This document shows positions 6,374 to 61,775 of a stretch of 64,000 nucleotides of DNA, in pieces; the first letter of the stretch is position 1; each line of letters opens with the position of its first letter. The stretch comes from a virus. Below the pieces are notes generated by a model. The model saw nothing but the letters and a program-made list of their open reading frames with translations. It searched no databases and had not been told where the DNA came from. The DNA lies in the IMG/VR virus record IMGVR_UViG_3300045988_144476. The stretch is one strand, 5' to 3'. A program made the translations under genes and the position numbers.

Positions 6374-6377
6374 TATA

Positions 6378-7267: not shown

Positions 7268-7269
7268 AT

Positions 7270-7473: not shown

Positions 7474-7721
7474 TGAATCGAGTAGAAAATTTATTATTAG
7501 ATTATGGATACGATGGAGTTGTATATTTTACAAACCCTTCATATGAAAGAGCTTTTCTTGGAGTATCAACAGATGATAGAGCAATTTATGATTTTGATCT
7601 TATGGTCGAATCACTTATGGAAGAAGAAGGAATGACAGAAGAAGACGCTGCAGAGTGGATAGATTATAATTGCTCTTATTATTTTGATGGATGTCCAATT
7701 ATTATGCATAGATTGGAGTAG
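7470..7721 (+). CDS. Small acidic protein (83 aa)
   Basis: ATGA-coupled and D/E-rich (EEEGMTEEDAAEW). No motif recognised. Confidence 0.6.
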   Translation: MMNRVENLLLDYGYDGVVYFTNPSYERAFLGVSTDDRAIYDFDLMVESLMEEEGMTEEDAAEWIDYNCSYYFDGCPIIMHRLE

Positions 7722-7752
7722 AATATGAATTATTTTATTAGAGGTGAATTAA

Positions 7753-8109
7753 TTGCCAAAACGTAACCAAGGATATTTTAGAGAACAAAGATTAAGAAGT
7801 ATTGAAAGACGTAAAGAGATTATTAGACAAAATGGTAGTTGTATTAGACCTTTTGAACCTTTAAATGATCCTAATTTTAAAGAAGGAACACTTGCTAAAG
7901 GACATAATGGATATTGCGGTAATGCCGGAAGAGCAGTTAAAACAAATAGACGTAAAGGACATACTACATACCGACATAAGGGTGCATATGGTCCGGCAAA
8001 TAATTATTCAAGACATGATAAGCAGCAGGTTGAAGATGGAGTACAGCAAATTAAAGAATGGGAGAATGAAGATGGAAAAAGAGAAAAAGAAAGTTTTGAT
8101 TGTAATTGA
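7753..8109 (+). CDS. Basic protein (118 aa), unknown function
   Basis: TTG start 7 nt after GAGGTG. R/K/H-rich. 3' end overlaps the nicotinamidase start by 38 nt. Confidence 0.5.
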   Translation: MPKRNQGYFREQRLRSIERRKEIIRQNGSCIRPFEPLNDPNFKEGTLAKGHNGYCGNAGRAVKTNRRKGHTTYRHKGAYGPANNYSRHDKQQVEDGVQQIKEWENEDGKREKESFDCN

Positions 8110-44360: not shown

Positions 44361-44396
44361 TGTAAAATAGAAGAGACTGCATTACACAGTCTCTTC
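44361..44396 (-). terminator. Hairpin plus U-rich tract between the tape-measure ORF and Dit
   Basis: gaagagactg-7 nt-cagtctcttc: perfect 10-bp stem then uauuuuaca on the - strand. Confidence 0.5.
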
Positions 44397-44406
44397 ATTG
44401 AAAATA

Positions 44407-47400: not shown

Positions 47401-50400
47401 ATCTTTTGTTTGGGAAGCATTAAATATAATATCTCCCTTTTTCAGATTTTCGAAATGTGGACCACCTGGTAATAAACTCCACACACCATCACGAACAATA
47501 GATTCCGTACCTACTTCATTTGTAAGGGCAGTCTCATTCTGATTTAAAGCAACATTACCACCTGCATGAGCAGAAGAAAGTGGCTTCAGGTTAAGCATAT
47601 TATAAGCAGTACCATCAGCATGAGCGATTGAGGTCATTGTGCCAGTAGCTTGTACCTTTTTAGTGTATACAGCAGTTCCAAATATTGTAGGAGCAGTTTT
47701 AGGATAACTACCTAAAGTATAATTTGCAGTACCAGATATGTCTGGAGCTGTTGTTGGATGATCACCCATAGTATAATTTGCTTGACCTTTTATATCATCA
47801 GCTACTTTAGGTTCATCACCTTTTTTATAATTTACAGTAATGCTTGCAGGATTTGATTCTATCTGTGATTTAATTGCATCGACATTTCCTACATTACCTT
47901 CTTCTACACCAATTGAAATTTGTACTTCAGGAGGAAGTTGAGCAATTTCATTTACTAATTCTGATACTTTGTCATCTTGCACAATAGCATCAATAGTAAC
48001 ACCTTTTCCTTGAAGTTCAGAAATTCTCGCCTGTAATTGATCTACTAATTCAGCACCTTGAGTTTCGGCTGTAACCTGTACTTTTTTATCATGGATTTGC
48101 TGCAGAAGATCTATTAAAGCCTGAACTTTTTCTGCATCTTCAACATCTCCATCTATTGTAAACTTTGTTTGTTCTTTAGAGAGTTCTTGAATTTTAGATT
48201 CTAGATTGTCGATAGACATAGAATCAGCGTCTATGTCAAGATCAATTTTAGAATTTATTTTTCCATCACTTTGAAGTTGTTTTACATCTTCAAGAGCACT
48301 ATCTGCACTTGCTTTAAGCTCTTCAATTTCTGAAGAGTCAACTTCCGGCTTAAGAACACCCAATCCTTCAAGAGCCTGTACAAGCTGGTCTTTCGTTAAA
48401 CCGGCCTGATTAGCAAGATCTTGTAATGCATCTTCAGCTTGTTCCATACCTTCAACATTGTAAGCACCGTCACCAAGTTGGATTCCTTCAAGATCAGTAG
48501 CAGTATATTGTTTTAGAGCGTTGAAATCAGCTTCAGTTGCTTCTGCATTTGCTTCGTGAGCCTGCTTAACTGCTTCAAGAGAATTCGCATATTCTTTAGC
48601 TGCAGTCGGATCAGAAATTCCCATCTCTTCTGCAGTGAGAGGAGAATCAAATGTTCCAATACCTTTATCGTGTAGCATCTGATTAAAAGCATCTTCGTCA
48701 ACTTCGAACTCAGGAGTTAATTTAATCTTATTATCCTTAGCTAATTGCTGAATACGATCATATAATCCTTGAGCATATTCCTGTTGTGCCGGATCATCTT
48801 TCACCTGTTGGTATTCTTTTGCAAAATCATTAATTGTCTGTTTTGCAGTATTCAGATTTTGCACTTCACGATCAGTTGCGCCATTTACATATGTATCAAG
48901 AGCAGTATTAGCATCATTAACCTGATTCTTTAAATCATCCACAACTTGAGCTTGCTGTTCAATCGCATATTGTGGTGCACCATTGGCAACTAATTCAGAG
49001 TATTTTTCTTGTGCAGAAATAAGATCTTTAGTCTTTTTGGTAACATCAGCCTCTCCTTCGGCTATAGATGAAATATTTGTAACAACTCCACCCATATCTT
49101 CGTAACGGCCAATGTAATCCTTGAATTGTTCTTCACTCATTCCAACTGCTTTGGCTGCAACATCGGAATCAGCAAATGTCATTTGCCATTGTTTAGAGCC
49201 ATCTTCAAGAGTTTTATAAGTAGCAAGTCCTTTTGATTGTAATAAATCAAGGAATTTTAATGGGCCAGATTTATCATCTGTATAATATGGTTTCCACTTA
49301 TTATAATTCTCAATGAAATTATCAGCATCTGTGAATCCATAAGGAGAGAAGTAAGCGGCTTTCTCTTTAAAATCATCTGTACCAATTTCACCATTATCGT
49401 ACATTTCTTTTAAAGATTCTAACTTACTTTTAGTTGCCTTATAATGATCTCCGGCATTTGGAGTGCTTTCAGCATTAATACCCTTTTGCCATTGACTGGT
49501 CTGTTCCTGCATATTTTTATACTGAGCCATATATTCATTTTGAAGATTCTTAAGTTCTTCAAGTTTTTGTTTTTCTGACTCAATAATATTACCATTTGAA
49601 TCGTGGATTTTCTTCTCTTGATCAGCAATCTGAGATGCTAAATCTTTTGAAACCATTTCATTTTGGGCTTCAGAAAGCTCCTGGAATCTATCAGTATTTA
49701 ACTGTAATCCTTTTGCAGATCTTGTAAATAATCCACTTATATCAGTTCCCTGAGCAGTAAGATCACTAAACTGAGTAACAAGATTCTTCACAGAGTCACT
49801 GGTTAATCCAGTTTCACTATTTGTTTCTCCAATAGCAGTACTCAAAGCACTGGTCAGATTTGTAACATCAGTAATAGGAAGATTCTGGATTTCTTCAAGC
49901 CATCCAGCCTGAGAAGCTTTCATATTTTCGATGGACATTTGAGCAGACTGGATTTGATCCTGGTATCCTTTGATCTTCTCATTGTCTTCATCAGTAAGAG
50001 GAGAGATACCTTTACTTTCTCTAATTGTACGGATATTATCCTGGTAATCCTTAATCTGTTTATTCAGATTTGAAATCTGAGCATTACCATTCTCAACAAG
50101 ATTGTTGTAATCCTGTGCAGTTGCTTTCTGATTTAATGCAGATTTATTACTCATTAGGGTCTGCATATCTGAAGCGTCAGTCTGAAGTCTAGTTAAATCT
50201 TTAGAGAGATTTTCAAGATCCTGATCATTCGCATCAAGATGAATTTGTGGACGTAATTCATCAATTTTTGCAATCCATTCATCAAGACTAGCAGTAGCCA
50301 TAGAAGGATCCATAGACAATTTTACAATTGCTTGTTGAGCTACTTTATCACCAGAATATTTATCGAAAAGATTAGTAAGGGTATTTTCTGCATTATCCTT

Positions 50401-52383
50401 TAAGAATTCAGATCCTTTTAAATTTGACCGAACTCGTTTGATTACATCATCCTGAACGTTGCTCATATCAAATCCCGCAGTATTAATACCATCCAAAATA
50501 CTTTGAACATATTTATCTGCAGCAGCTAATTCCTTCGGATCAGTCGTATCTTTTACAGCATCACGAATCTTTCCAATAGCAGTAGAAGCTTTATCGGTTG
50601 CAAGTTTCTGCAAGCCTGTCTGTAAATCATCTGTCTCAGTAGCAAGTTCTGGGAATTGCTGAATAAGATCTGTGATATCAGAACTCTTCATATCACCGGA
50701 TTTCAGGGAATCCATAGCAGTCTTGATATTAGACATACTTGACTGGAAATTATCTGTTACGGTATCAATGTCTGTTGCTGTGTCTTCAGCTGCATTCTTG
50801 AAGAGAGAAGAAAAAGTTTTGGATGTATCTTCGGAAGAAGCTTTAGATTCTTCCATTGCTTTATTCCAATTGGAAGTAAGTGTACCTATTCCCCAATCAT
50901 TCTCTTCAGGATCAAGACCATTATTCTGGAGATAATTCCAGAAAGTTTCTATATCTTTATCTGATTTATCCTTAAAAAATGCATCAGCGATTGAGCCGCC
51001 AGAAGTACTCGGAAGTTTTGACATAAATGCAAAAGTATCTTTAAGATTTTCTTTTACACCTTCAATATTTAATGCTTCCGGATCAGCTATAGCCATGATA
51101 TAAGATGCCAAATCATCTTGTGATACATTTTTATCTCCAAGTGCTGATTTGAGATCAGAATAATCTTTATTACTATTCAGAGCATCAAGAATTCCCTTGG
51201 AACCTTTAGACTTACCAATACTTTCAAGTTTTGTCTGTAAGTCTGCATAATCAGCGAGAGCAAAAAGATTGTTTAGTTTGTCCTCTGTGTCGGAAGATGA
51301 ACCTATGAGATTTGAGTAATTATCAATAAGAGAATTAACCTGGTCAATGGTACCCTGGTATTTCTTATCAAGAACTGTACCATCATCTTTAAGCATACTC
51401 TGTGACTGATCTGAGATATTAGAAATCATTTCAGAAAGTTCTGATTTTTGAGTATCAATACCTTCTTGCTGTCTCTCAAGAGTTTTATTTTCCTCTTCGG
51501 TAATTAGGTCCATATTATCGCTATGACCTTTTTTAATATTTTCATAGGCGGTATCATATCTATCCTGTAGATGTTGGATGTAATCCATTTTTGCCTGAGC
51601 TTCATCAAGATCATTAACATATACTTTGGCTTGTGGATTATAAATTCCACTACCGTCAGAGAAATAATCCTGCTGTAGAGATTTCTTCTTTAGATCTTTT
51701 TGTGCAGCATCTGCCTCAGCAGTTTTGGCACTGTCAGCTAATTTTTGTTTCAATGATACTTGGGCACCAAGAAGTTCATTCTGATCCTGAAGAGTATTTA
51801 ATTCTTGACTCTCTTCTAGTGATCTGTTTTCTTTTGCTCGAAGCTCTTGAATACGATCTTGATTAGTTGCGTATGCAGATTGTGCGGTTTCAAGATCAGA
51901 TTGAGCTGTTTCATTCTTCTCTTGAGCTTTTTGGTATTTCTTTGTGGTGGTTGCTTTTGTAAGATCAAATTGATTATCAAGACCTTTCCATGTAGCTGTA
52001 ACTGCTGCAATGCCTAATGAAAGAATTAATTCTGGAGCAATTGCTTTAAGCACAGATCCAATACCGGATAATACACCACTAGCTTTTCCAGTGACTCCTT
52101 TAGAACCAAATAAGAAACTTTTAATGTCTACAGTTTTGGTAGCATTGTCAAGAGCCTTTTCAACCTCTTCTTTGGTATGCTCTTCACCAAATTTATTCTT
52201 AACAGCTTCAAAAATCTGATCTGTTGATAGGAATTTTTGATTGCCTTTTCTATCGGTGTTTACACGATAAGCCCATTTCATTGCTGTCTCAAAATCTGAG
52301 AATCCACCAAATGCCGCATTTAAATCTTCTTTTGTACCTGTTTTAAATGCATTTTTTAGTTTTCCGATTTTACTTAATGACAT
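44407..52383 (-). CDS. Tape measure protein, distal part (2658 aa)
   Basis: Hydrophobic GIGSVLKAIAPELILSLGIAAV near the N-terminus, very long coiled coils, and a Ser/Gly/Lys linker. C-terminal TMP-type motifs (GTESIVRDGVWSLLPGG; GGVVRQLIPAD...INPGETILTQ). No Shine-Dalgarno precedes the ATG. Confidence 0.8.
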   Translation of the reverse strand: MSLSKIGKLKNAFKTGTKEDLNAAFGGFSDFETAMKWAYRVNTDRKGNQKFLSTDQIFEAVKNKFGEEHTKEEVEKALDNATKTVDIKSFLFGSKGVTGKASGVLSGIGSVLKAIAPELILSLGIAAVTATWKGLDNQFDLTKATTTKKYQKAQEKNETAQSDLETAQSAYATNQDRIQELRAKENRSLEESQELNTLQDQNELLGAQVSLKQKLADSAKTAEADAAQKDLKKKSLQQDYFSDGSGIYNPQAKVYVNDLDEAQAKMDYIQHLQDRYDTAYENIKKGHSDNMDLITEEENKTLERQQEGIDTQKSELSEMISNISDQSQSMLKDDGTVLDKKYQGTIDQVNSLIDNYSNLIGSSSDTEDKLNNLFALADYADLQTKLESIGKSKGSKGILDALNSNKDYSDLKSALGDKNVSQDDLASYIMAIADPEALNIEGVKENLKDTFAFMSKLPSTSGGSIADAFFKDKSDKDIETFWNYLQNNGLDPEENDWGIGTLTSNWNKAMEESKASSEDTSKTFSSLFKNAAEDTATDIDTVTDNFQSSMSNIKTAMDSLKSGDMKSSDITDLIQQFPELATETDDLQTGLQKLATDKASTAIGKIRDAVKDTTDPKELAAADKYVQSILDGINTAGFDMSNVQDDVIKRVRSNLKGSEFLKDNAENTLTNLFDKYSGDKVAQQAIVKLSMDPSMATASLDEWIAKIDELRPQIHLDANDQDLENLSKDLTRLQTDASDMQTLMSNKSALNQKATAQDYNNLVENGNAQISNLNKQIKDYQDNIRTIRESKGISPLTDEDNEKIKGYQDQIQSAQMSIENMKASQAGWLEEIQNLPITDVTNLTSALSTAIGETNSETGLTSDSVKNLVTQFSDLTAQGTDISGLFTRSAKGLQLNTDRFQELSEAQNEMVSKDLASQIADQEKKIHDSNGNIIESEKQKLEELKNLQNEYMAQYKNMQEQTSQWQKGINAESTPNAGDHYKATKSKLESLKEMYDNGEIGTDDFKEKAAYFSPYGFTDADNFIENYNKWKPYYTDDKSGPLKFLDLLQSKGLATYKTLEDGSKQWQMTFADSDVAAKAVGMSEEQFKDYIGRYEDMGGVVTNISSIAEGEADVTKKTKDLISAQEKYSELVANGAPQYAIEQQAQVVDDLKNQVNDANTALDTYVNGATDREVQNLNTAKQTINDFAKEYQQVKDDPAQQEYAQGLYDRIQQLAKDNKIKLTPEFEVDEDAFNQMLHDKGIGTFDSPLTAEEMGISDPTAAKEYANSLEAVKQAHEANAEATEADFNALKQYTATDLEGIQLGDGAYNVEGMEQAEDALQDLANQAGLTKDQLVQALEGLGVLKPEVDSSEIEELKASADSALEDVKQLQSDGKINSKIDLDIDADSMSIDNLESKIQELSKEQTKFTIDGDVEDAEKVQALIDLLQQIHDKKVQVTAETQGAELVDQLQARISELQGKGVTIDAIVQDDKVSELVNEIAQLPPEVQISIGVEEGNVGNVDAIKSQIESNPASITVNYKKGDEPKVADDIKGQANYTMGDHPTTAPDISGTANYTLGSYPKTAPTIFGTAVYTKKVQATGTMTSIAHADGTAYNMLNLKPLSSAHAGGNVALNQNETALTNEVGTESIVRDGVWSLLPGGPHFENLKKGDIIFNASQTKDLLEHGRTNSNARAYAQGSLGSNAYALTGFNFKDTSTRKSTSSSSSNKKSSGSNSGSGSGSGKKNKSSSKSSSKKYLDDIVDWFERLVKKLENRIDLNAAKAENTYKLANKETYINKQLKDNQELQKDYAKGAKMYTKKSDKFAKDIGLSADLKNKVKNGKIDLAKLSDDNKKKVEAYQKWYDKINDCNKAIEELKQKEKELYQQKLNNITERYDALIGVYSSYNETLDSLNSAREEKGASQAPNSDYTNTIRNQISSNQTQADLIYQEIQKYQTAYNEFAKKYGPDDTATKEAKATLEGLNKSYYDIIQSTAEYENKLKEIQLTYDQWQVDKYQRASDKLSDSRDYKEKNNYKGSGNDLTENDYLNAIKTNDKTAIALNNRRNDIINQMSQYSENSTQYQDLAKDLADINSSIIDTANSTAELKKSIVDLRFKAFSDIQDDLNDYIDNLNDLQDMMDSDTFLNDDGSFTKQGLSNILLISKEMDAYKQQIVDYRQQLSEVQELYDNHMITLDEYEDATKDAVSNINKASKSLYSSQQNMLKAYEDQITKVNKSLQDNIDKRKDALSAKKDYYDYDKTLKDKNKDIDTLKAQIAALEGTTNASAKARLAQLKADLKDKEDDLADTKYEHQIDLESKGYDNLSEQANDALDKTLQAVKSNTELQKSVINNMLKEVQNSYSDAYSNIQKTIEDTGYKTSDMFDDLIKKAQLTNKTISEIPTNVPKTNTDEIDSQRPDKSGSDNAVNNALNSQDPSGSNLTVETIEQRQAREQAEAAAAAAQKAKAAVESAANTKSKLQEWYNSVPTGKVTSSKFKEKHHDFYYYFWKKNKKVGQKDFEQVAKILGHNYIASKPYKDWKKSWKDKILKELKGYGFSKGGVVRQLIPADANSFLGDAILKNGDTGFAPINPGETILTQEFTKQLKPATATMSQFNDMLSGKLPNIPASNQENTFNSNVTINVDSISSDVDVKKLAKEVSNTVMNDYSKYMRKDMMKLTGRNR
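52338..52347. repeat. 10-bp direct repeat, left copy (ctgttttaaa)
   Basis: Identical 10-mer at 55997-56006. Both copies encode F-K-T in the same codon phase of the two tape-measure ORFs. Confidence 0.4.
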
Positions 52384-52405
52384 GTATAAAATTATCAGGT
52401 ATAAT
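52377..52405 (+). promoter_or_regulatory. Sigma70-type promoter of the cassette
   Basis: ATGACA-17 nt-TATAAT. The -35 overlaps the ATG of the distal tape-measure ORF on the other strand. Confidence 0.55.
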
Positions 52406-52436
52406 GATGTTATAAAGATGCAAAGGAGAGATTAAA

Positions 52437-53024
52437 ATGGCTTTAATAAAATGTCCTGAATGTGGTAAGGAAGTTTCCAATAAAGCTCCAGCGTGCATAC
52501 ATTGTGGTTTCCCATTGAGTGAACTCAAAAAAGAAGGCACTTGTAAAATAAATGATCAAGAAGTTGATCTGATAAGGATCAAAAAATTATATGATTCATT
52601 ACCAGATGAATGTAAAAAAATTATATATAAAAGTTGTCGAACAAACGCAACAAAAACAGAAAAATATATTTGTTCATGTTCTCCGGATACATATACTGTA
52701 GAAGAAAGTAATAAAATTTATGATATTTATATGGATATGATATTTCCAATCCAAAAACAATTTAATTGGTTTGGTGCTAATGAGTATTTAGTTCACAGAT
52801 TCCTTGTAGAATGCATCGATCACAACTTTGAATACTTTGAGTTCAATACCTCAGATTATCCTTCTCCCGGATCTCAAAATCAACTTCGTTGTCCAAAATG
52901 TGGTTCAACTTCAATCGTTCCAGAAAAAAGAGGATACGATATTATGTGGGGATTTTTAGGATCTGAGAGAATCGTATATAATGTATGTCAGAAGTGTGGA
53001 CATAAGTGGAAGCCTGGAAAATAA
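52437..53024 (+). CDS. Double zinc-ribbon protein (195 aa)
   Basis: RBS AAAGGAGAG. N-terminal CPECG...CIHCG and C-terminal CPKCG...CQKCG. Confidence 0.65.
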
Positions 53025-53047
53025 GGAGCAGTTACTTAATTGTTTTG

Positions 53048-53200
53048 TCAATCATATGTATAACGCATTTTTGGAATGCCAGAATCATTCAAACGAGAAT
53101 TAATAATTTGCTGTAATTTTTCTTGCTCTTTTTCAAATTGCCACCAGTAGATTACTTTTAGTATATTTTGATGTTTTGGTGTGGGTATAAGGTATAACAT
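53048..53200 (-). CDS. Possible small ORF (50 aa)
   Basis: Below the track cut-off: MLYLIPTPKHQNILKVIYWWQFEKEQEKLQQIINSRLNDSGIPKMRYTYD. Only a weak RBS. Confidence 0.3.
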   Translation of the reverse strand: MLYLIPTPKHQNILKVIYWWQFEKEQEKLQQIINSRLNDSGIPKMRYTYD

Positions 53201-53277
53201 GTTGATCAGCTCACTTTCAAGAGGGAATAATGAATATAAGAAAAATAAAGAAAACGATATATATACAACCGATATAA

Positions 53278-53442
53278 TTATTCACTTATGTCATGTTTTT
53301 GGTCTTGACAATCTGTATCTGATGAAGTGACCGGTATAAAACATTGAGTGAATATATATTTACAAAGTTCTTCTGTGTTTGTTTCAGTTATAGGCATACT
53401 GTCTGAATAAATGGTAGACACTTGTTCTGATTGTGTATTCAA
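53278..53442 (-). CDS. Possible small acidic ORF (54 aa)
   Basis: Below the track cut-off. TTG start 6 nt after GAGGTG. MNTQSEQVSTIYSDSMPITETNTEELCKYIFTQCFIPVTSSDTDCQDQKHDISE. Confidence 0.4.
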   Translation of the reverse strand: MNTQSEQVSTIYSDSMPITETNTEELCKYIFTQCFIPVTSSDTDCQDQKHDISE

Positions 53443-53504
53443 TTAAATCACCTCGATTCTAATAAAAGTGTGGTTATAAGTGGTGGCTGGGGAGATAAAT
53501 AATT

Positions 53505-54320
53505 ATGTATATTGATACCTATGATACTAATAACGAAGATGAAAGATTTAAAAAATATGTAGAAATTCTTAAATCCCATGATCAGCTAAAAAAATCATTA
53601 TGGAATAAGCTTAATACTCCAGAAGTGTTAAAATTAGAAGAAGAATCAGATACTCTTTTTAAAGAATATATGAAACTAGATAGAAAACTTCAAAGAGAGG
53701 TTGCGTTTTATAATAGTTATTTGAAATCTGATTCTGATTGTATAGATTATTGCGATGTAAAATTTCATGAAGATCTAGATTTTAATCTTCCTGAAGAAAT
53801 TCAAGAGTTGGCTAATACATTTCATAAGAAAGATAAAGAATATAGTTGTGCTTGTAATGCCCACAAAGAAGCATTATGTAAAAATTTTGTAAAGCTAATA
53901 TCAGATATTACTCCTGAAAATTGTTTTAGAGATAATTCATTTGGAAGTACTCGTGATGTCTTCTCAGATTTTTATAATTCATGCAAACCATTCATGATCC
54001 TTAACATGGGGTTATACGAGCTTATTATAGTTCAAGATATTTTTACAGATAAGTATCATCATACAAATTATTCTATTACTATGTATGAATTGAAAAACAT
54101 GTCAAACTTTGATGTAAAAGTAAGATGTGAAAAGTTCTTCGATCAATTTAATAAAGAATTAGAACCATATCGACAAAACTTACGTTCTAACTTCGAACAT
54201 AAAACTCCTGTTCTGACACCTTTTAAAGATGCATATACTCTTTTTGCTCAGACCAGATCAGAAGAATATGGCAGAACTAGACAATATCTGATTATTGGAT
54301 GTGTGGTGTATCAAAAATAG
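53505..54320 (+). CDS. Hypothetical protein (271 aa)
   Basis: RBS GGGGAG. No recognisable motif. Confidence 0.6.
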   Translation: MYIDTYDTNNEDERFKKYVEILKSHDQLKKSLWNKLNTPEVLKLEEESDTLFKEYMKLDRKLQREVAFYNSYLKSDSDCIDYCDVKFHEDLDFNLPEEIQELANTFHKKDKEYSCACNAHKEALCKNFVKLISDITPENCFRDNSFGSTRDVFSDFYNSCKPFMILNMGLYELIIVQDIFTDKYHHTNYSITMYELKNMSNFDVKVRCEKFFDQFNKELEPYRQNLRSNFEHKTPVLTPFKDAYTLFAQTRSEEYGRTRQYLIIGCVVYQK

Positions 54321-54365
54321 CAGAAAATACGTTCTGATTTACATATTATATGAAAATGGTATAAT
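54321..54365 (+). promoter_or_regulatory. Operator/promoter copy 1
   Basis: cagaaaatacgttctgatttaca (CAGAA-N6-TTCTG palindrome abutting -35 TTTACA), 16-nt spacer, then extended -10 TGgTATAAT. Confidence 0.6.
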
Positions 54366-54371
54366 TTACCA

Positions 54372-54555
54372 TGTAGATGGTGAGTGTACGCACCGCCCAC
54401 CTGTGCGTATCTACAAGCAACCCGTTAACCTATACACCATGAGAAAGTAGAGGTGTATGCTTATTTCCAGGAGTCTACATGATTCTGGTAGTCGTATCAA
54501 GTTCATCTTAGCTTCCAAACAAATAGTGAATCCGTCACTAGATTGGAGGTGAAAG
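54372..54555 (+). ncRNA. About 185-nt structured 5' leader of peptide 1 (class unknown)
   Basis: Nested stems gtaga/tctac plus tacgcac/gtgcgta, atacacc/ggtgtat and ccagga/ttctgg. CCACCT (54397-54402) is complementary to SD AGGTG. Confidence 0.4.
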
Positions 54556-54738
54556 ATGAATAATAATGATCGACTATTTAAGCTTGCAAGTTTAACACTT
54601 TTCTTGGTAGTTATAGTAGCTATAGTTTGGATAATTCTAGACCATAATCCAATCGTTTTAAAGGCAACTATTAACATATTGAAATTTTCTGCTGAGATTA
54701 GTTGCGAGTTTGCAAGCGTTGCATCAGGCTGCAATTAA
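54556..54738 (+). CDS. Small membrane peptide 1 (60 aa), type I toxin-like architecture
   Basis: GGAGGTG RBS. N-terminal TM helix LASLTLFLVVIVAIVWIIL and a polar tail. Confidence 0.55.
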   Translation: MNNNDRLFKLASLTLFLVVIVAIVWIILDHNPIVLKATINILKFSAEISCEFASVASGCN

Positions 54739-55072
54739 GTTGACCGTGGGTCGTTTATAGCCTGAGAATCAGAGGGTAATTCCTTTGATGTAAAACGGTG
54801 CCTTTTGCTCCAACAAGAGGTACCGTTATCAATAGAAATACCATGACATTTTACAATATCAGATTTTATTATTTGAGATTTCTCTTTGCTTATAAACAGC
54901 GAATCTAATTTATTATTCATAATAGTTCCTTTTATCCATTTTATTATATATTTGAAAATAAAGCTCCTGGATATTCCAAGAGCTTTGTTATCGGCAATCG
55001 TTCACGATTATTTTTTAAACAGGGGAGTGCCCGGATCAGCCGATATGATTCCCTCAGCATGTGAGCCTGTTA

Positions 55073-55118
55073 CAGAAAATATGTTCTGATTTACAAAAAT
55101 ACCAAATATTGGTAATAT
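55073..55118 (+). promoter_or_regulatory. Operator/promoter copy 2
   Basis: cagaaaatatgttctgatttaca (22 of 23 identical to copy 1), 17-nt spacer, then extended -10 TGgTAATAT. Confidence 0.6.
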
Positions 55119-55124
55119 ACCAAT

Positions 55125-55308
55125 AGGTATTTTGTGGTTGTAGATGATGCATTACAACACGATTGCACGGCAAATACCTGATTTATTCTTTAATAAATCA
55201 TGCATAAGCAAAGCTATACAATCTTGTATACGCAATGCGAAAAGAGAATTCTGCCCGTTCTGGGCGAAACTTCCCAAATAAGAAATTTTTATTAGGGGAG
55301 GAGGTGAA
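55125..55308 (+). ncRNA. About 185-nt structured 5' leader of peptide 2 (class unknown)
   Basis: Stems aggtattt/aaatacct, gttgta/tacaac, tgatttatt/aataaatca, tatacaa/tgtata and gccc/gggc. Hairpin 55271-55299 pairs UUCCC with the first GGGGA of the SD. Confidence 0.4.
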
Positions 55309-55494
55309 ATGAATATGATTGAATTGTTTAGTATTTTTGGAGGTCTTCTAGTAATTATAATCTTAGCTCATATGTATTATAGTTCAAAGAAACACACCAT
55401 TGATCAGATTTGTAATCATCCAGAATTATCTGATGAGAAAGTTGAATCGATCACTAAAATGATGAAAAGACAGTACAAAGATCGTATCAAATAA
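55309..55494 (+). CDS. Small membrane peptide 2 (61 aa), type I toxin-like architecture
   Basis: GGGGAGGAGGTG RBS. N-terminal TM helix LFSIFGGLLVIIILAHMYY and a K/E-rich tail. Confidence 0.6.
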   Translation: MNMIELFSIFGGLLVIIILAHMYYSSKKHTIDQICNHPELSDEKVESITKMMKRQYKDRIK

Positions 55495-55572
55495 TTCTAA
55501 TGTCATTTCCCAATTATGAATTCTCCTTTAGATTTAAAGTTTTAATAGATTTTTAGAAATGTTTACGAAAGA

Positions 55573-55598
55573 GGCCGGGAGTATTCTCGGTCTTTTTT
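55573..55598 (+). terminator. Intrinsic terminator closing the + strand cassette
   Basis: ggccggg-agtatt-ctcggtc (7 bp including 2 G-U pairs) followed by TTTTTT. Confidence 0.65.
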
Positions 55599-55985
55599 CT
55601 CTTCATTCACAGTAGAAGAGTAGTACTGAGTGGATTTCACCACCGTTACAGTGGTACATGCATTAAAAGCATATGTCTTTCCGAACTTAACATATACTCC
55701 GAGGAAGGGTGCACTCTCTACACTTCCTGATTATTCATATGCTTCCATCACCATAACTTTCGTTATTGCTTCTAGTGTATCACATATTACTAAACGTAAA
55801 TCAGGTTGGCACATGCGTCACTCTGCGAACTTGCGTTCACTTCACTGCATAAGCAGAATAACAGGCTTCGATGTTTTATTCCTCTATTTATTTATAGCCG
55901 CTAGTCTCCACACATTGATTATTAATCTCTATGTAGATAGGCTCATTATCAAAATCGGAAAAATAAATGTAACCCTGAGTTTGGG

Positions 55986-58900
55986 TCAACCTACGGCTGT
56001 TTTAAAACCACCACCAATTAAGAAATCTAATCCTTTTTTACCTGCATTCTTTACAGTCATTGCTGAGAAAATTGCAGTGATTAGAGCTGGTATTGGTCCT
56101 AAAGTTTTCTCTAATCCGGTAAATCCTTCTGTTAATCCATGTACAAAATCAAGTGCTCCACCTACTTGATCTGAATTATAGAAGTTTAACCAGAATTCGT
56201 CCATTTGAGTTTTAATGGCCTGGACTTTGCCATTGAAAGATTCCATGTATTTCTCTTGGTTTGCTTCAGCGTTACCTTGAGCATTTGTAGCTTCTTCAGC
56301 TAAAGACATGGAGTCTGTGAATGCGTCCAATATGTTCTTGAACTTGGATGTTTGTCTTGTCGCTGCGACATCAAATGCGATTTTTGCTTGCTGTGCATCA
56401 GTCAAATCATTCCATTTGGATTTCAGTTCGGATAATACCGTAACAATTCCACGGTCTGATCCATCTGGATTATAGACATCAACACCTATAGAATGCAGAG
56501 AAGCAGAAGCATTTGATAATGTTGCATTATCAACCTCATCTGCGTATTGTGGCATTTTACCGACTTTTGTGGTTCTGGTAATAATTGTCTTTAAAGCATT
56601 ACCAATTGAACTTCCATCTTCACGAGTTCTTTCAGCTACTTTTGCAGAAATAGCAGCTAATTGTTCATATGACATTCCGGCATCATAAGCAACCTGACCT
56701 GAAGCCTGTACAGCATCAGACATTACCTTAATACCTTTGGCATAATCCATACCCACGTTCGATGATATTTTATCCATTACATCTACTACATGCATAGAAG
56801 CATCAGCAGCAGAAGTAGATCCGTCTTCTAACATATGGAACTGCTGTAAAATACCCTGTACCTGGTCAGCAGCAGTAGAAGCATCAACACCACTTAAGTT
56901 ACTCAGAATAGCAGTCGGTTTAGCAGTTTCCTGAATTTCTTTTGAAGTAGTATTCATATTTGCATAGATCTGATAAATATCCATTGTATTATCAAGAGAC
57001 ATTGACAGATCTTTTGCCATATCAACAGCAGAAGTACCTAAATCAGATAATTGCTGTTTATTCATATCCATGGTATAACTGATAGTAGTTAAAGCCTTAT
57101 CATAATCCATGAATGTATTGAATCCTTCACGCATTTGTTGCCATGCCTGTTGCATAATTTGGATACTACCAACAGCATTTGCGACATCACCAAGAGCGGA
57201 AGTAAAGTTACCTTTTACAAGTCCTTTCAGACTATCTGAAAGAGATGTAAAACCAGATGTTCCGGATTTATTTGTATATTTCTCCATTGTACGGAGACTG
57301 TCATTTGCTTTTTCTATATTACCTGTAAGAGTAACAAGATTACCTGAAACATCTTTAAAAACTAATGATATAGAACCGGTACTTTTATTTATACTAGTTG
57401 AAACTTCATTAGTAAGACCAAGTTGAGATGCATAATTTCTTAGAGCAGAAGTAGCATCATCAATATCTTTTATGGTACCAAGAGTACCTTCTTGTAAAAT
57501 ACCTTTTCCATTTTTTCTATCATATCCAGAAGCAGTTTTTTGGAAATTTTCAATATCAGAAATGATATTATTAACAGAATCATGAAAATTATTTTCGTCA
57601 ATTTCTTTATTATTAAGTGAATCAACTAATTGATTGTATCGTGTTCTAAATTCAGTGATCTTATCTTTGTAGGCATCAATTTTATTTCCAGAATTTGCAA
57701 ATTTATTTAATTTATTTATTTGTTCTGCGAAATTAAGCTCGTCATTACCTGTCACAGTATTTTCATAATAATTCTTTAGATCTGTAAATTTTTCGGTCTG
57801 TTCTTGTATTTTATCAACATAATCTAAAATACCATTAGCATTTTTATTTTGATTAAATGCACTTTCAGCATCTTTAGTAGATGTTTTTATACTTTCTAAA
57901 TCAGCTTTTAAACGATCGGTTATACGACCTGCACTTTCAAGTTTGGTGAGATAACTATCGACTTGATTTAAGAATGACTTAGAATTATTTGAAATTAACT
58001 GATCTTGAGTAGCATTGGCTCTATTACGAATATCAAATATTGCATTTTCAGCAACTTCTTTCCCAAATATGCTATTTACTTGTGCACGAAGACTTTGATA
58101 TGCATTAGTATAATTTTCACCTAAAATCTTTCCGGCAGTAATATCGGCTCCATCTTTAGTAGCAAGACCAAGAAGTTTGTTTTCGTTATTTCTTTTGTTT
58201 GAATATGCCTTCTTCATCAATTCAATGATATTATTGTTTTTACCATCAAAATTAGAATAATCAGACATATCATCAAAAGCCTTTTGATATGAATCAAATT
58301 TCTTTTGATCTAAAATTCTGTCGGGATTTGATTTATTATTATCGTATACTGTATTATAAAAATCCCCAACTTCTTTTCGTAAAGATTTAATTTTATCTAC
58401 TTGAGCATTTACTTTTTCAATGTATTCATCTTTACCATATTTGCCAGAAGCTCCATTTGCCTGGATATTATATAAATCAACATATGCTTGTTTTAATTCT
58501 TTAACTTTAGCAATAGCAGAGTCATATGTTTGATTATAATCATCTATATTTTTCTGTGTATTTTCTTTCTGAAAAGCACTATATGCACCTTGTTCAGCTT
58601 CACCTAATTTACTTTTTTGGGTGTTATAAGCATTTACACGATCTTTTCCTAATACATCAGAATGCTGTTCAATAAATTTATCGGCATCCTCAATATTCTT
58701 TTGTTTATTATCAATTTCTTTGCGTAAATTGTTAATTAATTCATTAGAAGCACCTTTAGATTTAGCAGAAGATAATTCTTTATTTTTCTTCTCTAGTTTA
58801 GAAAGACCATTCATTAAATCGGTGTATTCAGAAATAATTTGATCTGAAATACGATTTCCCGCACGTTCGTTCATATCAATCCGATGTTGTTCAATTCCTT

Positions 58901-61775
58901 TTTGAATTGCCTCATCAAATTGTTCAGTCGTATATTCAGGATGTTCTTGAGCATAAGTCTCTGCATCTGCTCTTAAGCTCTTCATACGTCCCTTTAAATA
59001 TCCAATACGTTTTTTAGAAGCTTTAATATTAGATTGACTACTATTTTTGGCAATACCTGCCTCCATATCAGCAAGATCTTCACGTTCGGTCATTAATCTT
59101 TTTTCTATATTAATTGCTTCTGTCTCTAACGCTGCATATCCGCTTTTTATATCACCGCCAGATTGTCTCCATAAACCATCTGAATCTTTTGTGAGAGTTC
59201 TAGTGTATGATCGTCCGGTCTGATCGTCTTTGTAAACTGTAGTCTTTTTTCGACCATTAATGTCTTCCTTATTAGACACAAGTCTATAATTCTTATATGG
59301 ATTATCTTGTTCCAAAAACCCTAAAAGTTTTTCTGGAGAAAGTTTAAATCCATTATATGTACTACCTAAAAGATTTCCAGATTTATAACCAGTTAAAAAA
59401 TTCTCTTTATGAGCAATAAAACTTTGTTCGTTTTCAGCTGCTTGAGCATTTTTCTTAGCTTGTATAATACGAACTCTTTGTTCTTCTCTATCAGATTTGC
59501 TTTGAGCAGTATCTGTAGATACTTTTAATTTAGGCGCAGAAGTAACTTTATATTTTCTTTCTTCTTGTTTAACAGATTCTTCCTGCTTCTTAGCCGTATC
59601 CTCAGTAGCAACACCAAGTCTCTTAGTAGAATCAGCCATCTGATCAATATTTTCAGTGGCATTACCGGCAGCAGAAGCAACAGCATCATTGATATGATCA
59701 ACGGCAGTATCCACAGCATCTGCAGTCTTTTCTGTTTTCTTAGCTTGAGTGGTAGGAGATTTAGAAGAAGTAGATGTATCCTCTAAAGAATCACGAAGTG
59801 CATAATGAGTGTCAGAAAGAAAATATAATCCTTTAGTATCTTTACCAGATTTTTTACGAATTTTCCCTAATAATCTTTCTTCGTATCTTTCTGTTTTATC
59901 TAAATCTGCAATAGATAAATTTCCGTTATTTTTTTTGATATTTTGAGCAAACATCTGATTGACAAGTTTATCAGCTGCATTTCTAATACTATCATGTGAT
60001 AATAATGTACCATCAAAATTATTTATCTGATCATAAATTTGAGAAAAAATAGATAATCTTTGTTCTAACCCTTTTAATTCTGATTCGGCATCTTTCAAAT
60101 TAGTATTTTGATTTACATAAGGAGAATGTAAATTTAAAGCTTCTGCAGGTATACCATTTTTTAAAGCAGTTATATAATATTTTCTTGTTTTATATAAAGC
60201 TGCAGTTTCTGAAAAACTACCTTGTGGTATATCTGGATTTTCTCGAATTTGATCTAAATCTCTTGAAGCTGCCATAAATTTTGTGGCGGCATTTTTTTTA
60301 CCAGTAGCAGAATAATCAGCGTTTACAATTGAATCATATACAGAACCTTTCGAAGTAATATTCTGTGTAGGAGTAGTAGATTGAGTGGATTTCTTCTGGG
60401 TAGTTTTAGGTTTAGAAGAAGTAGATTTGGAAGTAGATTTCTTTTTAGGAGTGGTTGTTTTTGGAGCGAAACTAGAAACAGCTTTCTTTTCCGCATCTTG
60501 TTGCTCTAAGAATAGTTTGGCAGATTGTTCTTCATATATTTTTTTGAAAAATCCTGTAGTATCTTGTTCGAATATAAGGTTTTTTACGTCATCAAAATCT
60601 TGAAGATCTTTAAGACCTGTTCCACCCTTATATTTATACACTAGGAGATTTCCAAGAATACCAGCCTGAACAGTTGGGCTTAAGTCTTCATTTTGAAAAT
60701 CATGTTCCCGTCTGTATCTATTTAATGTTGCTCTTGACGTTTTAGCGTCATTTTTTTCAATAGCTTCTAGTATTTTATCTTTAGCATTAGATAATTCTCT
60801 ATTTTTAGTATCTAAAATATCACGTTTTCCTGCATCTTTAGCTTGGGCTGTCAGTCCAGTTTGCACTGACTTTAAAGCATCTATAACTTCTTTAGATCCA
60901 GCACCAATGGATTTTGCTGCTGTAATAAATACTGTAGCGATTCCTTCACCACCAGCTTCTAACGAAGTCTTTATATCGCCAATTAATGCTTTTTGAGATA
61001 CTTCTTCAGTAACAGATGTATTAAAACCGGGAATAAGTTCAGAATTTTTTTTGGTAAAATAATTTCTTGTGGCTACTTGATGACCACCTAAATTATCTGG
61101 AGTATTATTTTTATTAAATTGTTCAACAAGTCTGTCATGATAAGCAAGAACGTCCGCTTGTCTTTGTCGTGCAGCTAACATTTCATCTAAAGTTTCATAT
61201 TCTTCAGCTTTAAAAAGTCCAGACTTACTGCTATAAGATTCATTAATTTTTTTTATAATATTACCAATACGAAACAATTCTGCAATTTGTTCTTGATATT
61301 CACTAGAAATTTTATTCTTATTTATAAAAGAAGTAATTCCACCACGAACTCTTGAATCTAATTCAGAAGTAGACGCTAATTCTGGATATTGAGACATAAA
61401 ATCTTTTACATTAGCATTTTTACCTAATTGTGTTAAATTTTTTTTTGTAACGTTGGTAGTTGCATTTGAAATAGCACTTTCTAATGCCTTTGCATATGCT
61501 TTAGCGTCACTTAAAGTTTTCTTATCAAGATTTGATGGAAGTTTTACTTCTCCCATTAATGGAATTTTAGTTTCTTTATATTTAATCTCAGCTTCTGTTT
61601 TAATTGGCTTTTCAGCCTCTCTACGAGCTTTATCTATTTTTGATGTATCTGGGATAATAGTATCTTTTGTTTCATAATCTTTACTTGCTTCTTTTTTCCA
61701 TTCATCCCATAATTTTTTATCAACATTAATCGGAACATTTATTTCATGTTCGCCACTTGGTCCTTGATAACTCAT
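55986..61775 (-). CDS. Tape measure protein, proximal part (1929 aa, TP901-type core)
   Basis: AGGTGA RBS and long coiled coils. Core-region motif MDYAKGIKVMSDAVQASGQVAYDAGMSYEQLAAISAKVAERTREDGSSIGNALKTII. Ends in hydrophobic GPIPALITAIFSAMTV...GGGFKTAVG. Confidence 0.85.
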   Translation of the reverse strand: MSYQGPSGEHEINVPINVDKKLWDEWKKEASKDYETKDTIIPDTSKIDKARREAEKPIKTEAEIKYKETKIPLMGEVKLPSNLDKKTLSDAKAYAKALESAISNATTNVTKKNLTQLGKNANVKDFMSQYPELASTSELDSRVRGGITSFINKNKISSEYQEQIAELFRIGNIIKKINESYSSKSGLFKAEEYETLDEMLAARQRQADVLAYHDRLVEQFNKNNTPDNLGGHQVATRNYFTKKNSELIPGFNTSVTEEVSQKALIGDIKTSLEAGGEGIATVFITAAKSIGAGSKEVIDALKSVQTGLTAQAKDAGKRDILDTKNRELSNAKDKILEAIEKNDAKTSRATLNRYRREHDFQNEDLSPTVQAGILGNLLVYKYKGGTGLKDLQDFDDVKNLIFEQDTTGFFKKIYEEQSAKLFLEQQDAEKKAVSSFAPKTTTPKKKSTSKSTSSKPKTTQKKSTQSTTPTQNITSKGSVYDSIVNADYSATGKKNAATKFMAASRDLDQIRENPDIPQGSFSETAALYKTRKYYITALKNGIPAEALNLHSPYVNQNTNLKDAESELKGLEQRLSIFSQIYDQINNFDGTLLSHDSIRNAADKLVNQMFAQNIKKNNGNLSIADLDKTERYEERLLGKIRKKSGKDTKGLYFLSDTHYALRDSLEDTSTSSKSPTTQAKKTEKTADAVDTAVDHINDAVASAAGNATENIDQMADSTKRLGVATEDTAKKQEESVKQEERKYKVTSAPKLKVSTDTAQSKSDREEQRVRIIQAKKNAQAAENEQSFIAHKENFLTGYKSGNLLGSTYNGFKLSPEKLLGFLEQDNPYKNYRLVSNKEDINGRKKTTVYKDDQTGRSYTRTLTKDSDGLWRQSGGDIKSGYAALETEAINIEKRLMTEREDLADMEAGIAKNSSQSNIKASKKRIGYLKGRMKSLRADAETYAQEHPEYTTEQFDEAIQKGIEQHRIDMNERAGNRISDQIISEYTDLMNGLSKLEKKNKELSSAKSKGASNELINNLRKEIDNKQKNIEDADKFIEQHSDVLGKDRVNAYNTQKSKLGEAEQGAYSAFQKENTQKNIDDYNQTYDSAIAKVKELKQAYVDLYNIQANGASGKYGKDEYIEKVNAQVDKIKSLRKEVGDFYNTVYDNNKSNPDRILDQKKFDSYQKAFDDMSDYSNFDGKNNNIIELMKKAYSNKRNNENKLLGLATKDGADITAGKILGENYTNAYQSLRAQVNSIFGKEVAENAIFDIRNRANATQDQLISNNSKSFLNQVDSYLTKLESAGRITDRLKADLESIKTSTKDAESAFNQNKNANGILDYVDKIQEQTEKFTDLKNYYENTVTGNDELNFAEQINKLNKFANSGNKIDAYKDKITEFRTRYNQLVDSLNNKEIDENNFHDSVNNIISDIENFQKTASGYDRKNGKGILQEGTLGTIKDIDDATSALRNYASQLGLTNEVSTSINKSTGSISLVFKDVSGNLVTLTGNIEKANDSLRTMEKYTNKSGTSGFTSLSDSLKGLVKGNFTSALGDVANAVGSIQIMQQAWQQMREGFNTFMDYDKALTTISYTMDMNKQQLSDLGTSAVDMAKDLSMSLDNTMDIYQIYANMNTTSKEIQETAKPTAILSNLSGVDASTAADQVQGILQQFHMLEDGSTSAADASMHVVDVMDKISSNVGMDYAKGIKVMSDAVQASGQVAYDAGMSYEQLAAISAKVAERTREDGSSIGNALKTIITRTTKVGKMPQYADEVDNATLSNASASLHSIGVDVYNPDGSDRGIVTVLSELKSKWNDLTDAQQAKIAFDVAATRQTSKFKNILDAFTDSMSLAEEATNAQGNAEANQEKYMESFNGKVQAIKTQMDEFWLNFYNSDQVGGALDFVHGLTEGFTGLEKTLGPIPALITAIFSAMTVKNAGKKGLDFLIGGGFKTAVG
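55997..56006. repeat. 10-bp direct repeat, right copy (ctgttttaaa)
   Basis: See 52338-52347. Confidence 0.4.

Follow-up and report, generated by a model that had tools for sequence, protein, structure and literature searches.

Group I introns have been described in the tape-measure genes of phages, both in prophages of the Bacillus cereus group (TMP-IVS1, TMP-IVS2 and TMP-IVS3) and in Lactobacillus phage JCL1032, in a study that also catalogues introns of the SPbeta type (PMC2504315). A second related arrangement is the IStron, represented by CdISt1 and BcISt1, in which a group I ribozyme is fused to an IS200/IS605 element (PMC4227781). Here we analyse a 64,000-nucleotide stretch of viral DNA, IMG/VR record IMGVR_UViG_3300045988_144476 (at its full length referred to below as the window), in which a TP901-type tape-measure gene is interrupted by 3.6 kb of DNA carrying genes on the opposite strand. 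The introns in td, nrdB and sunY of T4, and those of SPO1 and SPbeta, are about 0.25-1.5 kb long and carry endonuclease open reading frames (ORFs) on the sense strand, with the ORF of sunY located 3' of the catalytic core. In protists and fungi, some group I introns of the nuclear rDNA contain an antisense homing-endonuclease gene that is expressed independently of the host gene. Genes can also be interrupted at the level of DNA, as is the case for skin, and for SPbeta in spsM, where a recombinase encoded by the element removes it from the DNA at att repeats.

A sequence-only reading of the window had proposed that a single gene is interrupted here by a cassette that has to be removed, and placed this removal in the DNA, between two copies of a 10-bp repeat. 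The idea of one interrupted gene whose parts need rejoining holds, but the DNA level and the proposed junction do not. Instead, positions 52381-55988 on the minus strand are probably a group I intron within a single giant tape-measure gene, for which we predict splicing of the RNA. This reading is based on the conservation of the locus, a covarying RNA structure, complementarity between guide and exons, the lack of a start codon or Shine-Dalgarno sequence for the downstream part, and the existence of an uninterrupted homologue.

A tape-measure gene in two parts

Both parts of the gene are located on the minus strand. ORF1 (55986-61775) encodes 1929 aa, ends in ...LIGGGFKTAVG, and contains the PF10145 core of TP901-type tape measures at residues 1583-1801 (E=1e-19), while ORF2 (44407-52383) encodes 2658 aa with MSLSKIGKLKNAFKTGTKE as its N-terminus. 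Hydrophobic segments flank the junction on each side, the first in ORF1 and another in ORF2, and beyond the latter ORF2 is long and coiled-coil-like. As such, the features of a TP901-type tape measure are all present: PF10145, hydrophobic segments, a coiled-coil-rich C-terminal part and, in the homologues L051 and P0056, a single polypeptide. The earlier view that the two giant ORFs are halves of one tape measure, including their coordinates, the TP901-type core (here PF10145) and the ...GGGFKTAVG end, was thereby verified. If the intron is as predicted, exon 1 covers 55989-61775 (1929 codons with the TP901-type core and the first hydrophobic segment, ending ...GCC GUA GGU for A-V-G) and exon 2 covers 44407-52380 (2657 codons and a stop, beginning UCA UUA AGU AAA AUC GG for S-L-S-K-I-G). 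A megablast search against GenBank phages returned zero matches. Directly 3' of the ORF2 stop codon and ahead of the next tail gene, a hairpin followed by a T-run is found on the minus strand at about 44375-44400 (gaagagactg...cagtctcttctatttt), possibly a terminator or attenuator within the late operon.

Conservation of the interruption

The end of ORF1 is encoded by 51 related IMG/VR contigs, mostly of 90-180 kb; statistics on the locus refer to 52 related loci that cover both ends, and in some tallies to 55 (these 52 close loci and three divergent ones). In all 51 viral-contig relatives except L051, the stop codon of ORF1 has the same position, and in 50 of the 51 it is followed by a gap and then, wherever the locus extends that far (L034 ends earlier), by a homologue of ORF2. 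The interruption is found at the identical place in 52/52 loci with both ends, far beyond what chance would give, and the intervening sequence measures 1587-4633 nt with a median of 2832. Homologues of the ORF1 C-terminus are 75-81% identical and finish at the same residue, with ...VVG or ...AVG before the stop. One 173-kb contig with SPbeta-type structural genes carries an ORF1 homologue, then opposite-strand genes including one for a zinc-ribbon protein, and then an ORF2 homologue of more than 3,000 aa; in the relatives, exon 2 remains open to the end of the locus (more than 3,000 codons in L001). A genome scan places the relatives in assemblies of Ruminococcus sp. AM36-2AA, Frisingicoccus and Lachnospiraceae, and many of the metagenome matches carry a human gut label.

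In the exception, L051, which is a divergent relative, the tape measure is encoded by one uninterrupted ORF (more than 3291 aa) that aligns to either side of the junction (GLKKAI...NSLLKQG to GFKTAV-G-SLSKIG; here and below, hyphens mark junctions), and the 1095-aa homologue P0056 is also continuous through it. An exact match to the precise junction is absent from viral and metagenome contigs, and only the distant L051 is without the intron. A further possibility raised before, that a recent insertion has disabled the tail and left a cryptic prophage, is refuted, since more than 50 contigs at 75-98% identity share the split, together with the ribozyme and an antisense zinc-ribbon gene. The same layout occurs in more divergent tape-measure lineages as well. 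Furthermore, at least eight exon 2 N-termini with no relation to one another (L001-L056) are found behind one and the same exon 1 end (e.g. SGGGLATVVG), and among their varied starts SL[SKGN]KIG[KN] is the sole part kept; the intron therefore appears to form a mosaic or recombination boundary within the gene.

Many relatives carry a second, canonical-looking group I intron in the PF10145 core of exon 1 (L026:6428-8000, L002:6410-7995, L017:~6350-8000), which is absent from the window. Its boxes include GTTCAACGACTAGA and AAGAAATAGTCTGG, and it carries an ORF of 305 or 418 aa on the same strand with a weakly GcrA-like N-terminus; Rfam detects none of the elements of this type in the relatives. 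Many database homologues of the tape measure are truncated at several positions of the core and bear recurrent odd tails (..CLYVQKCA and ..LKASLCMKKFILE before the stop), which suggests multiple intron sites in this tape-measure family.

A covarying, probable ribozyme core

The predicted intron measures 3608 nt, its ends being set by the P1 and P10 pairings and a terminal G. Its first codon is an in-frame stop, UGA (55986-55988), which is UGA or UAA in all close relatives, and its last base is the G at 52381 that also forms the G of the apparent ORF2 ATG. The putative ribozyme core, from P1a to P9, takes up the roughly 370 non-coding nucleotides directly after ORF1 (55620-55988, minus strand). 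In all relatives, the 340-400 nt after the ORF1 stop (55997 to ~55610 in the window) are 79-86% identical and contain no ORF. Conservation sets in sharply at GCCGTAGGT-TGACCC, where nucleotide-level conservation extends over the last 9 nt of exon 1 in all relatives and the codons just upstream vary freely.

The conserved RNA contains GNRA-capped stems with compensatory changes, from which RNAalifold derives a multi-helix fold. All of the following elements are on the minus strand. P1a, a hairpin after the 5' splice site (55970-55988), consists of GACCC/GGGUU and covaries in divergent members. P2 follows at 55908-55936. The 5' strand of P3, GAGGA (55880-55884), has UCCUC (55701-55705) as its partner, invariant and 100% paired, and leads into an A-rich J3/4. 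P4 (ACAUCG/CG-CAUGU, with ACAUCG within 55866-55874) shows compensatory changes in three of its six pairs, P5 is part of a three-way junction with P5a and P5b, and P6 (CCUGAUU/AAUCAGG) has an extension. The 5' strand of P7, G-x-GCA (55710-55714), pairs with UGU-y-C (55654-55658) in 100% of the sequences, where x-y is A-U in 12, C-G in 4 and U-A in 2 (n=18). P7 crosses P3 in the pseudoknot that is typical of group I cores; P8 (55667-55699) and P9 (55625-55652) complete the structure. As such, the P4-P6 and P3-P8 domains, the P3/P7 pseudoknot and the order of a group I core from P3 to P9 are all found, backed by covariation.

This covariation was assessed for a hand-built P1-P9 fold including the P3/P7 pseudoknot, using 18 aligned sequences that comprise divergent members. 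In this alignment, 93.5% of cells pair, compared to 31-49% in controls slid by 1-3 columns, and 34 of the 79 pairs are changed on both sides, compared to 4-8 in the slid controls; the structure having been drawn from the tested sequences, the paired percentage is inflated, but the compensatory counts relative to the slid controls are not. None of 500 shuffles reached the observed values. Double, compensatory changes occur in P4, P5, P6, P6b, P7 and P8, and the folding stability of the core lies above that of all 100 shuffles (minimum free energy z = -2.4). A scan for the P7/P3' motif furthermore shows that divergent members of the ribozyme family split other tape-measure genes right after ...KNLD.

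Could the ribozyme nevertheless be dead, the tape measure broken and the prophage cryptic? A decayed intron would fit the missing homing endonuclease (see below) and the failure to find intron-less alleles. Against this, compensatory changes keep the helices paired across many lineages, both exons are open (1929 and 2658 codons here, with exon 2 open in the relatives too), and the element resides in phage contigs of 90-180 kb with complete structural modules, which together point to purifying selection. We therefore regard decay as very unlikely, and the core as that of a probable group I intron under selection.

Several other properties of this region deserve mention. P1a is followed by a U-rich run and is the only minus-strand terminator-like site between 52200 and 56100; it might attenuate read-through into the intron. 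A weak tRNA-like match found with cmscan (55621-55698, minus strand, 14.6 bits, E=3.9) overlies P8-P9 and is most likely due to chance. An ORF on the plus strand (55630-56169) covers the conserved 380 nt, but the variation is located in indel-rich loops and compensatory stems, and we rejected a protein gene as the explanation of the conservation.

Guide sequences and predicted splice sites

The internal guide, UAAUGA-GCCUAU (55937-55948, minus strand), would contact both exons. Its 3' half, GCCUAU, forms P1 by pairing with exon 1 at -6..-1 (GUAGGU), which provides the 5' splice site with a U·G pair, and does so in 52/52 close loci; the three divergent members have UAGAU/GUCUA, and a GUGGGU variant is tolerated as G·U. 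Its 5' half, UAAUGA, lies directly 5' of the P1 guide and is fully complementary to exon 2 at +1..+6 (UCAUUA). This P10 is 5-6 bp long across loci and covaries in four exon/guide combinations: UCAUUA/UAAUGA, UCACUC/GAGUGG, UCACUU/AAGUGG and CGAUUU/AAAUCG. Covariation between guide and exon is seen in L054, L055 and L078. Furthermore, RNAalifold pairs a second segment just 5' of P3, GCGGC (55897-55901, minus strand), with exon 1 at -9..-5 (GCCGU), and this pairing too is kept by covariation (GCCGU/GCGGC, GUCGU/GCGAC and AACCU/GGGUU) in 55/55 loci. Group I ribozymes usually hold 4-6 bases of the 5' exon. With the second segment by P3 also pairing to exon 1, this one would hold 9-10.

At the other end, the base ahead of the predicted 3' splice site is G in 55/55 loci, and candidate P9.0 pairings account for the different intron ends CAUG, UAUAG and CAGUG of different clades. 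The exon 2 start, G-TCATTA..AAAATCGG, is nucleotide-invariant, with the protein beyond it being only ~32% identical among relatives. Splicing as predicted would join complete codons, ...GCC GUA GGU-UCA UUA AGU, with ...GCCGUAGGU-UCAUUAAGU... as the RNA junction (or, in another rendering, GCCGTAGGT-TCATTAAGT). The product, ...GLDFLIGGGFKTAVG-SLSKIGKLKNAFKTGTKE..., would thus read ...GGGFKTAVG-SLSKIGKLK... in frame and measure 1929 + 2657 = 4586 aa; this replaces the fused junction FKT-GTKE that had been proposed from the repeat. As a rule, tape measures account for ~0.15 nm of tail per residue. By this rule, 4586 aa would correspond to a tail of ~0.7 µm, about twice that of SPbeta. Keeping ribosomes out of a folding group I core is a known need (PMC4227781), and the conserved stop as the first intron codon fits that need.

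How, then, would exon 2 be translated if there were no splicing? Confirming what had been noted before, no Shine-Dalgarno sequence precedes the ATG of ORF2, whereas ORF1 (AGGTGA) and the next tail gene (GAGGTG) each have one. None of the relatives carries a ribosome-binding site before exon 2, and the codon at the position of the ATG is ATG in 46, TAG in 5 and GTG in 1 of the 52 loci. For L078, the guide points to a 3' splice site, ...AAAAG-CGAUUUAAAGAAGUUGG, that is in frame and upstream of which no start codon exists at all. These observations bear on the earlier suggestion of a genuinely two-part tape measure, in which ORF1 and ORF2 are separate proteins and the conserved RNA serves as a 3'-UTR (untranslated region) element, terminator or stabiliser. 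It would explain why all relatives keep the stop of ORF1 (as TGA or TAA), why an ATG directly precedes the SLSKIG codons in 46/52 loci, and why gene callers annotate two genes. It does not explain the five loci with TAG, the lack of any start codon in L078, the lack of Shine-Dalgarno sequences or the one continuous ORF of L051; nor does a UTR element need a guide that covaries with both exon ends, and the ATG/TAG/GTG pattern matches P9.0 and the terminal G. Separate proteins are therefore an unlikely explanation.

The same holds, to a yet greater degree, for trans-splicing, in which the same ribozyme would join two RNAs: late transcription would stop after the core, exon 2 would be made as a separate RNA, and both would be brought together via P10 and P9.0. 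Such a scheme is invited by the distance of 1.2-4.2 kb between core and 3' splice site, by the terminator hairpin of the cassette just after P9, and by the extended pairing with the 5' exon. However, that terminator belongs to the plus strand, with no U-run in the minus-strand direction, and there is no convincing minus-strand promoter upstream of exon 2, as promoter-like sites show no enrichment relative to shuffles (27, compared to 21±5). We know of no natural trans-splicing phage group I intron. As our scan of 52200-56100 found no minus-strand terminator-like sites within the cargo, and exon 2 lacks a start signal, we infer splicing in cis over 3.2 kb.

The 10-bp repeat

The sequence-only reading had drawn attention to the 10-mer CTGTTTTAAA, and its existence, its coordinates and its phase are correct: in the whole window it occurs only at 52338-52347 and 55997-56006, both copies on one strand, and encodes F-K-T in the same phase in both ORFs. 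Its meaning as an excision boundary does not stand. Both copies sit inside the exons, one with its end 9 nt ahead of the 5' splice site, the other starting 33 nt past the 3' splice site. Following a suggestion made with that reading, random ORF segments of 63 and 93 nt were compared; they share a match of at least 10 nt in 1.8% of trials and of at least 9 nt in 6%, which we do not regard as beyond chance for the 10-mer. Nor is the repeat conserved. The sister phage L118 (96-98% identical) has CTTAAAACAG in exon 1 (L-K-T) and retains only a 9-nt match, the next closest relative, L056, has IKT and an unrelated exon 2 start with no repeat, and most clades lack it. The comparison with related phages that had been advised gave an uninterrupted gene in L051, and the 52/52 loci covering both ends are split, with the repeat absent in most clades. 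We judge the 10-mer to be coincidental.

It is against this background that DNA excision between the repeats, as in intervening elements of sporulation genes, has to be weighed. Excision would restore the gene through a 3659-bp deletion with the junction ...GGTTTTAAAACAGGTACA..., and what makes it attractive is that the window has exactly two copies of the 10-mer, in phase with each other. It would, however, delete the conserved AVG-SLSKIGKLKNA, which is aligned in uninterrupted homologues, and the cassette contains no recombinase, while the repeat is unconserved, off the element boundaries and expected by chance at the above rate per such segment pair. No junction-type sequence was found in the collections, the scans having queried the splice junction and not the repeat-deletion junction. 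Excision from the DNA is thus hardly credible, and the need for removal, which we retain, would be served at the RNA level only.

A direct repeat flanking lower-GC, foreign-looking DNA could also bring to mind a transposon or insertion sequence (IS) with a target-site duplication, a group II intron or an intein. With a repeat that is off the element boundaries, no transposase, reverse transcriptase or intein motifs, a 5' end that is not GUGYG, and no room for domain V/VI at a 3' end made up of the zinc-ribbon promoter and coding start, the probability of any of these is close to nil. An intein, or translational bypass, was rejected in view of the stop codon and the 3.6 kb with opposite-strand genes between the halves. 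A group I intron remains the probable identity of the element.

In another clade (L005, L016, L050 and 12 similar loci), an in-phase 9-mer, TTGCAACAG, occurs at -17..-9 of exon 1, a position shared with the repeat of the window, and at ~+75 of exon 2. This is curious, but given ~10 independent lineages not statistically compelling.

Cargo of the probable intron

Between P9 and the 3' splice site, the intron carries 52406-55600 as cargo, with its genes on the plus strand and thus antisense to the tape measure. Besides the core, the region around the start of ORF2 is conserved, along with the start of the zinc-ribbon gene. The zinc-ribbon gene (52437-53024; phrog_2546) encodes 195 aa with a double zinc ribbon, and is antisense and abuts the 3' splice site in all 52 loci. 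Further genes encode a 271-aa protein with no assigned function (53505-54320; 45/52 loci) and a 60-aa hydrophobic, small membrane protein (54556-54738; 47/52 loci), and a 61-aa membrane-protein-like ORF (55309-55494) belongs to the variable cargo, which elsewhere includes a DUF2513 protein and a 432-aa protein. Cargo blocks are not the same even in the window and L118, which are 96-98% identical. Three plus-strand promoter-like sites score 9-11/12. The first, a strong one at 52377-52405 (ATGACA-17-TATAAT), overlaps the 3' splice site and, as had been seen earlier and is verified here, the ATG of ORF2; the others lie at 54338-54365 (TTTACA-16-TATAAT, with an upstream TG) and 55090-55118. An intrinsic terminator of the plus-strand cassette (55567-55598) precedes antisense entry into the ribozyme core, and an equivalent hairpin with a T-run is found in aligned relatives.

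The linkage between ribozyme and zinc-ribbon gene is close to universal. Of 78 distinct ribozyme copies that have 2 kb or more of sequence behind them, 70 precede a zinc-ribbon gene in antisense orientation, and no copy precedes one in sense orientation; the remaining eight consist of two early-ending loci, two probable chance matches to the motif, and two clades with other cargo. It is the only cargo gene present in every fully sampled intron copy, and in the minimal form of ~1.3 kb, found in L055, it is all that accompanies the core. The zinc-ribbon family comprises ~1200 clusters with no known function. An AlphaFold model (pLDDT 82) shows two zinc ribbons around a helical domain, for which a fold search of the PDB gave no significant or nuclease-like match (best E=0.42). 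For the 271-aa protein, 8 homologues were found, and its AlphaFold model (pLDDT 52) is too poor to use.

In agreement with the earlier observation that the cassette lacks a recombinase, no cassette ORF matches a recombinase, transposase or nuclease family; homing endonucleases in particular (LAGLIDADG, GIY-YIG, HNH, His-Cys box, PD-(D/E)xK, EDxHD) gave no Pfam, PHROG or NCBIfam match among the cargo ORFs, and the PADLOC defence models gave none in the cassette. A homing endonuclease identity of the zinc-ribbon protein is not supported, as it has no nuclease family or fold and its homologues also occur free-standing without a ribozyme. Such free-standing homologues are located in accessory regions of integrative elements, where XRE repressors, resolvases and toxin-antitoxin pairs are their neighbours and no ribozyme is close by; in L113-L117, paralogous zinc-ribbon pairs adjoin genes for a resolvase, YoeB/Phd, Bro-N and an XRE repressor at the margins of elements integrated in gut bacteria. 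Still, its near-universal linkage to the intron keeps the idea of a role in homing or maintenance alive.

Two side observations concern the cassette. Between promoter site 2, a strong one, and the 60-aa ORF lies an untranslated leader of ~190 nt that is richer in GC (54338-54555, plus strand), and the promoter segment at 54338 is conserved in relatives; the leader could be a regulatory RNA or part of a type I toxin-like arrangement. In L177 (Ga0153972_1000166) and L183 (Ga0153920_1006569), the ribozyme motif is present in 2-3 copies over a stretch of 4-9 kb, and an antisense zinc-ribbon gene comes after every copy. Two exons that succeed one another in L183 share the end ...NLD, and one copy in L177 is apparently 5'-truncated and located after an XRE-type gene. 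The ribozyme and the zinc-ribbon gene may therefore duplicate or move as a unit.

Most likely, the cargo is a prophage-expressed accessory module that is parked in the intron, its expression being independent of the late genes. Whether the element belongs to a class of its own among phage group I introns, with an antisense, independently transcribed module anchored by a zinc-ribbon gene and not by a homing endonuclease, is a more doubtful matter, and we put this forward only tentatively. In one version of this idea, the zinc-ribbon protein may be a new factor for intron mobility or maintenance. In another, the intron may have come to serve as a shelter, and as a recombination hotspot, for lysogeny-expressed genes within an essential late gene; if so, convergent transcription and a delay of 1-4 kb between the splicing steps would couple the full-length tape measure to the lytic programme.

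Predicted splicing and its implications

Taken together, a late transcript would run from exon 1 through the ~370-nt core and the 3.2 kb cassette, read antisense, into exon 2. The core would grip the last 9-10 bases of exon 1 through P1, with its U·G at the splice site, and through the second guide near P3, after which guanosine would attack behind ...GCC GUA GGU. As exon 2 emerges, its first six bases would pair with the guide 5' of the P1 guide to form P10 and the terminal G of the intron would dock, so that ligation of the exons would yield the 4586-aa tape measure with ...GGGFKTAVG-SLSKIGKLK.... In this process, the stop as the first intron codon would halt ribosomes ahead of the folding ribozyme, and the apparent ATG of ORF2 would be the last three bases of the intron and not a start codon. 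Meanwhile, the cargo genes on the opposite strand would use their own sigma-70-type promoters and terminator.

We must however take into account several points that weigh against this picture. Splicing itself, its cis mode and the role of the cargo are inferred from sequence. A 3' splice site 3.2 kb beyond the core, across convergent promoters, is unusual for bacterial and phage group I introns, and both the distance and the promoters could make cis-splicing inefficient. Rfam gave no match to group I (RF00028) or group II models, neither at the gathering threshold on the window and five relatives nor in E-value mode on 4.4 kb, and no group I match on 450 nt even at E<=10. The classical P/Q/R/S box sequences are absent from the core, J6/7 is unusually long, and the subgroup cannot be assigned. 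Three clades have a clear P9.0, the lineage of the window itself only an ambiguous one, and the ATG kept in 46/52 loci makes some independent initiation of ORF2 possible. As for Rfam, the canonical-looking group I intron of L026, used as a positive control, was missed as well, and its negative result therefore carries little weight. In lineages that keep the ATG, partial independent translation of ORF2 is possible, as is a role for the truncated 1929-aa product.

The first implication concerns annotation. In large phages of human-gut Lachnospiraceae and Ruminococcus, gene callers turn the tape measure into two genes and Rfam does not see the intron, which would make tail-length predictions, protein clustering and calls of prophage 'intactness' wrong for the whole clade. 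If splicing occurs as predicted, a bacterial-type group I ribozyme would reach a 3' splice site up to ~4.2 kb away over promoter-bearing antisense genes, and the way it grips the 5' exon, in two parts and over an unusual length, suggests how such a distant site might be used. More broadly, introns may be sites of exchange and offer neutral places in which accessory genes are parked. At the least, the antisense zinc-ribbon protein, being always present, is a concrete candidate for experiments.

Comparison with known systems

Elements such as skin, and SPbeta in spsM, resemble the present one in that several kilobases split a gene whose parts need rejoining; here, no recombinase or conserved repeat is found, and the ribozyme signatures lie in the RNA. 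With the classical phage group I introns, the element shares the predicted splicing chemistry, an early in-frame stop and a location in a conserved phage gene, but the ORFs of those introns encode endonucleases in sense orientation. The antisense genes of nuclear rDNA introns are eukaryotic and consist of one endonuclease ORF, whereas the cassette described here is bacterial-type, contains several genes and has no endonuclease signature.

The layout matches that of IStrons, which likewise have a complete 5' ribozyme, a large cargo after the P9 subdomains and a 3' splice site kilobases away, and both occur in Clostridia and Bacilli (PMC4227781). This corresponds to the core at 55620-55988, the cargo at 52406-55600 and the 3' splice site at 52381. 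Unlike IStrons, the element has no TnpA or TnpB, its cargo is antisense with its own promoters, and a single copy in the window, always in the same gene context in the relatives, replaces multi-copy transposition.

In terms of host gene, the counterparts are the TMP-IVS introns of B. cereus-group prophages, in which an internal guide sequence and P1 with U·G also set the splice site, and most of which are without a functional homing endonuclease and inherited with the prophage (PMC2504315). Those introns belong to IA1/IA2, are of ordinary size, and either lack an ORF or carry a GIY-YIG or HNH gene on the same strand (PMC2504315). The present intron, at 1.6-4.6 kb across loci, instead has promoter-bearing opposite-strand genes between P9 and the 3' splice site, a second guide for the 5' exon, a non-canonical core sequence and no recognisable endonuclease. 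In the literature on phage group I introns, we found no precedent for antisense or non-endonuclease cargo, although coverage was incomplete and this is weak evidence of novelty. As such, group I introns in tape-measure genes are known, and what looks to be new is the layout of a multi-gene antisense cargo that bears its own promoters.

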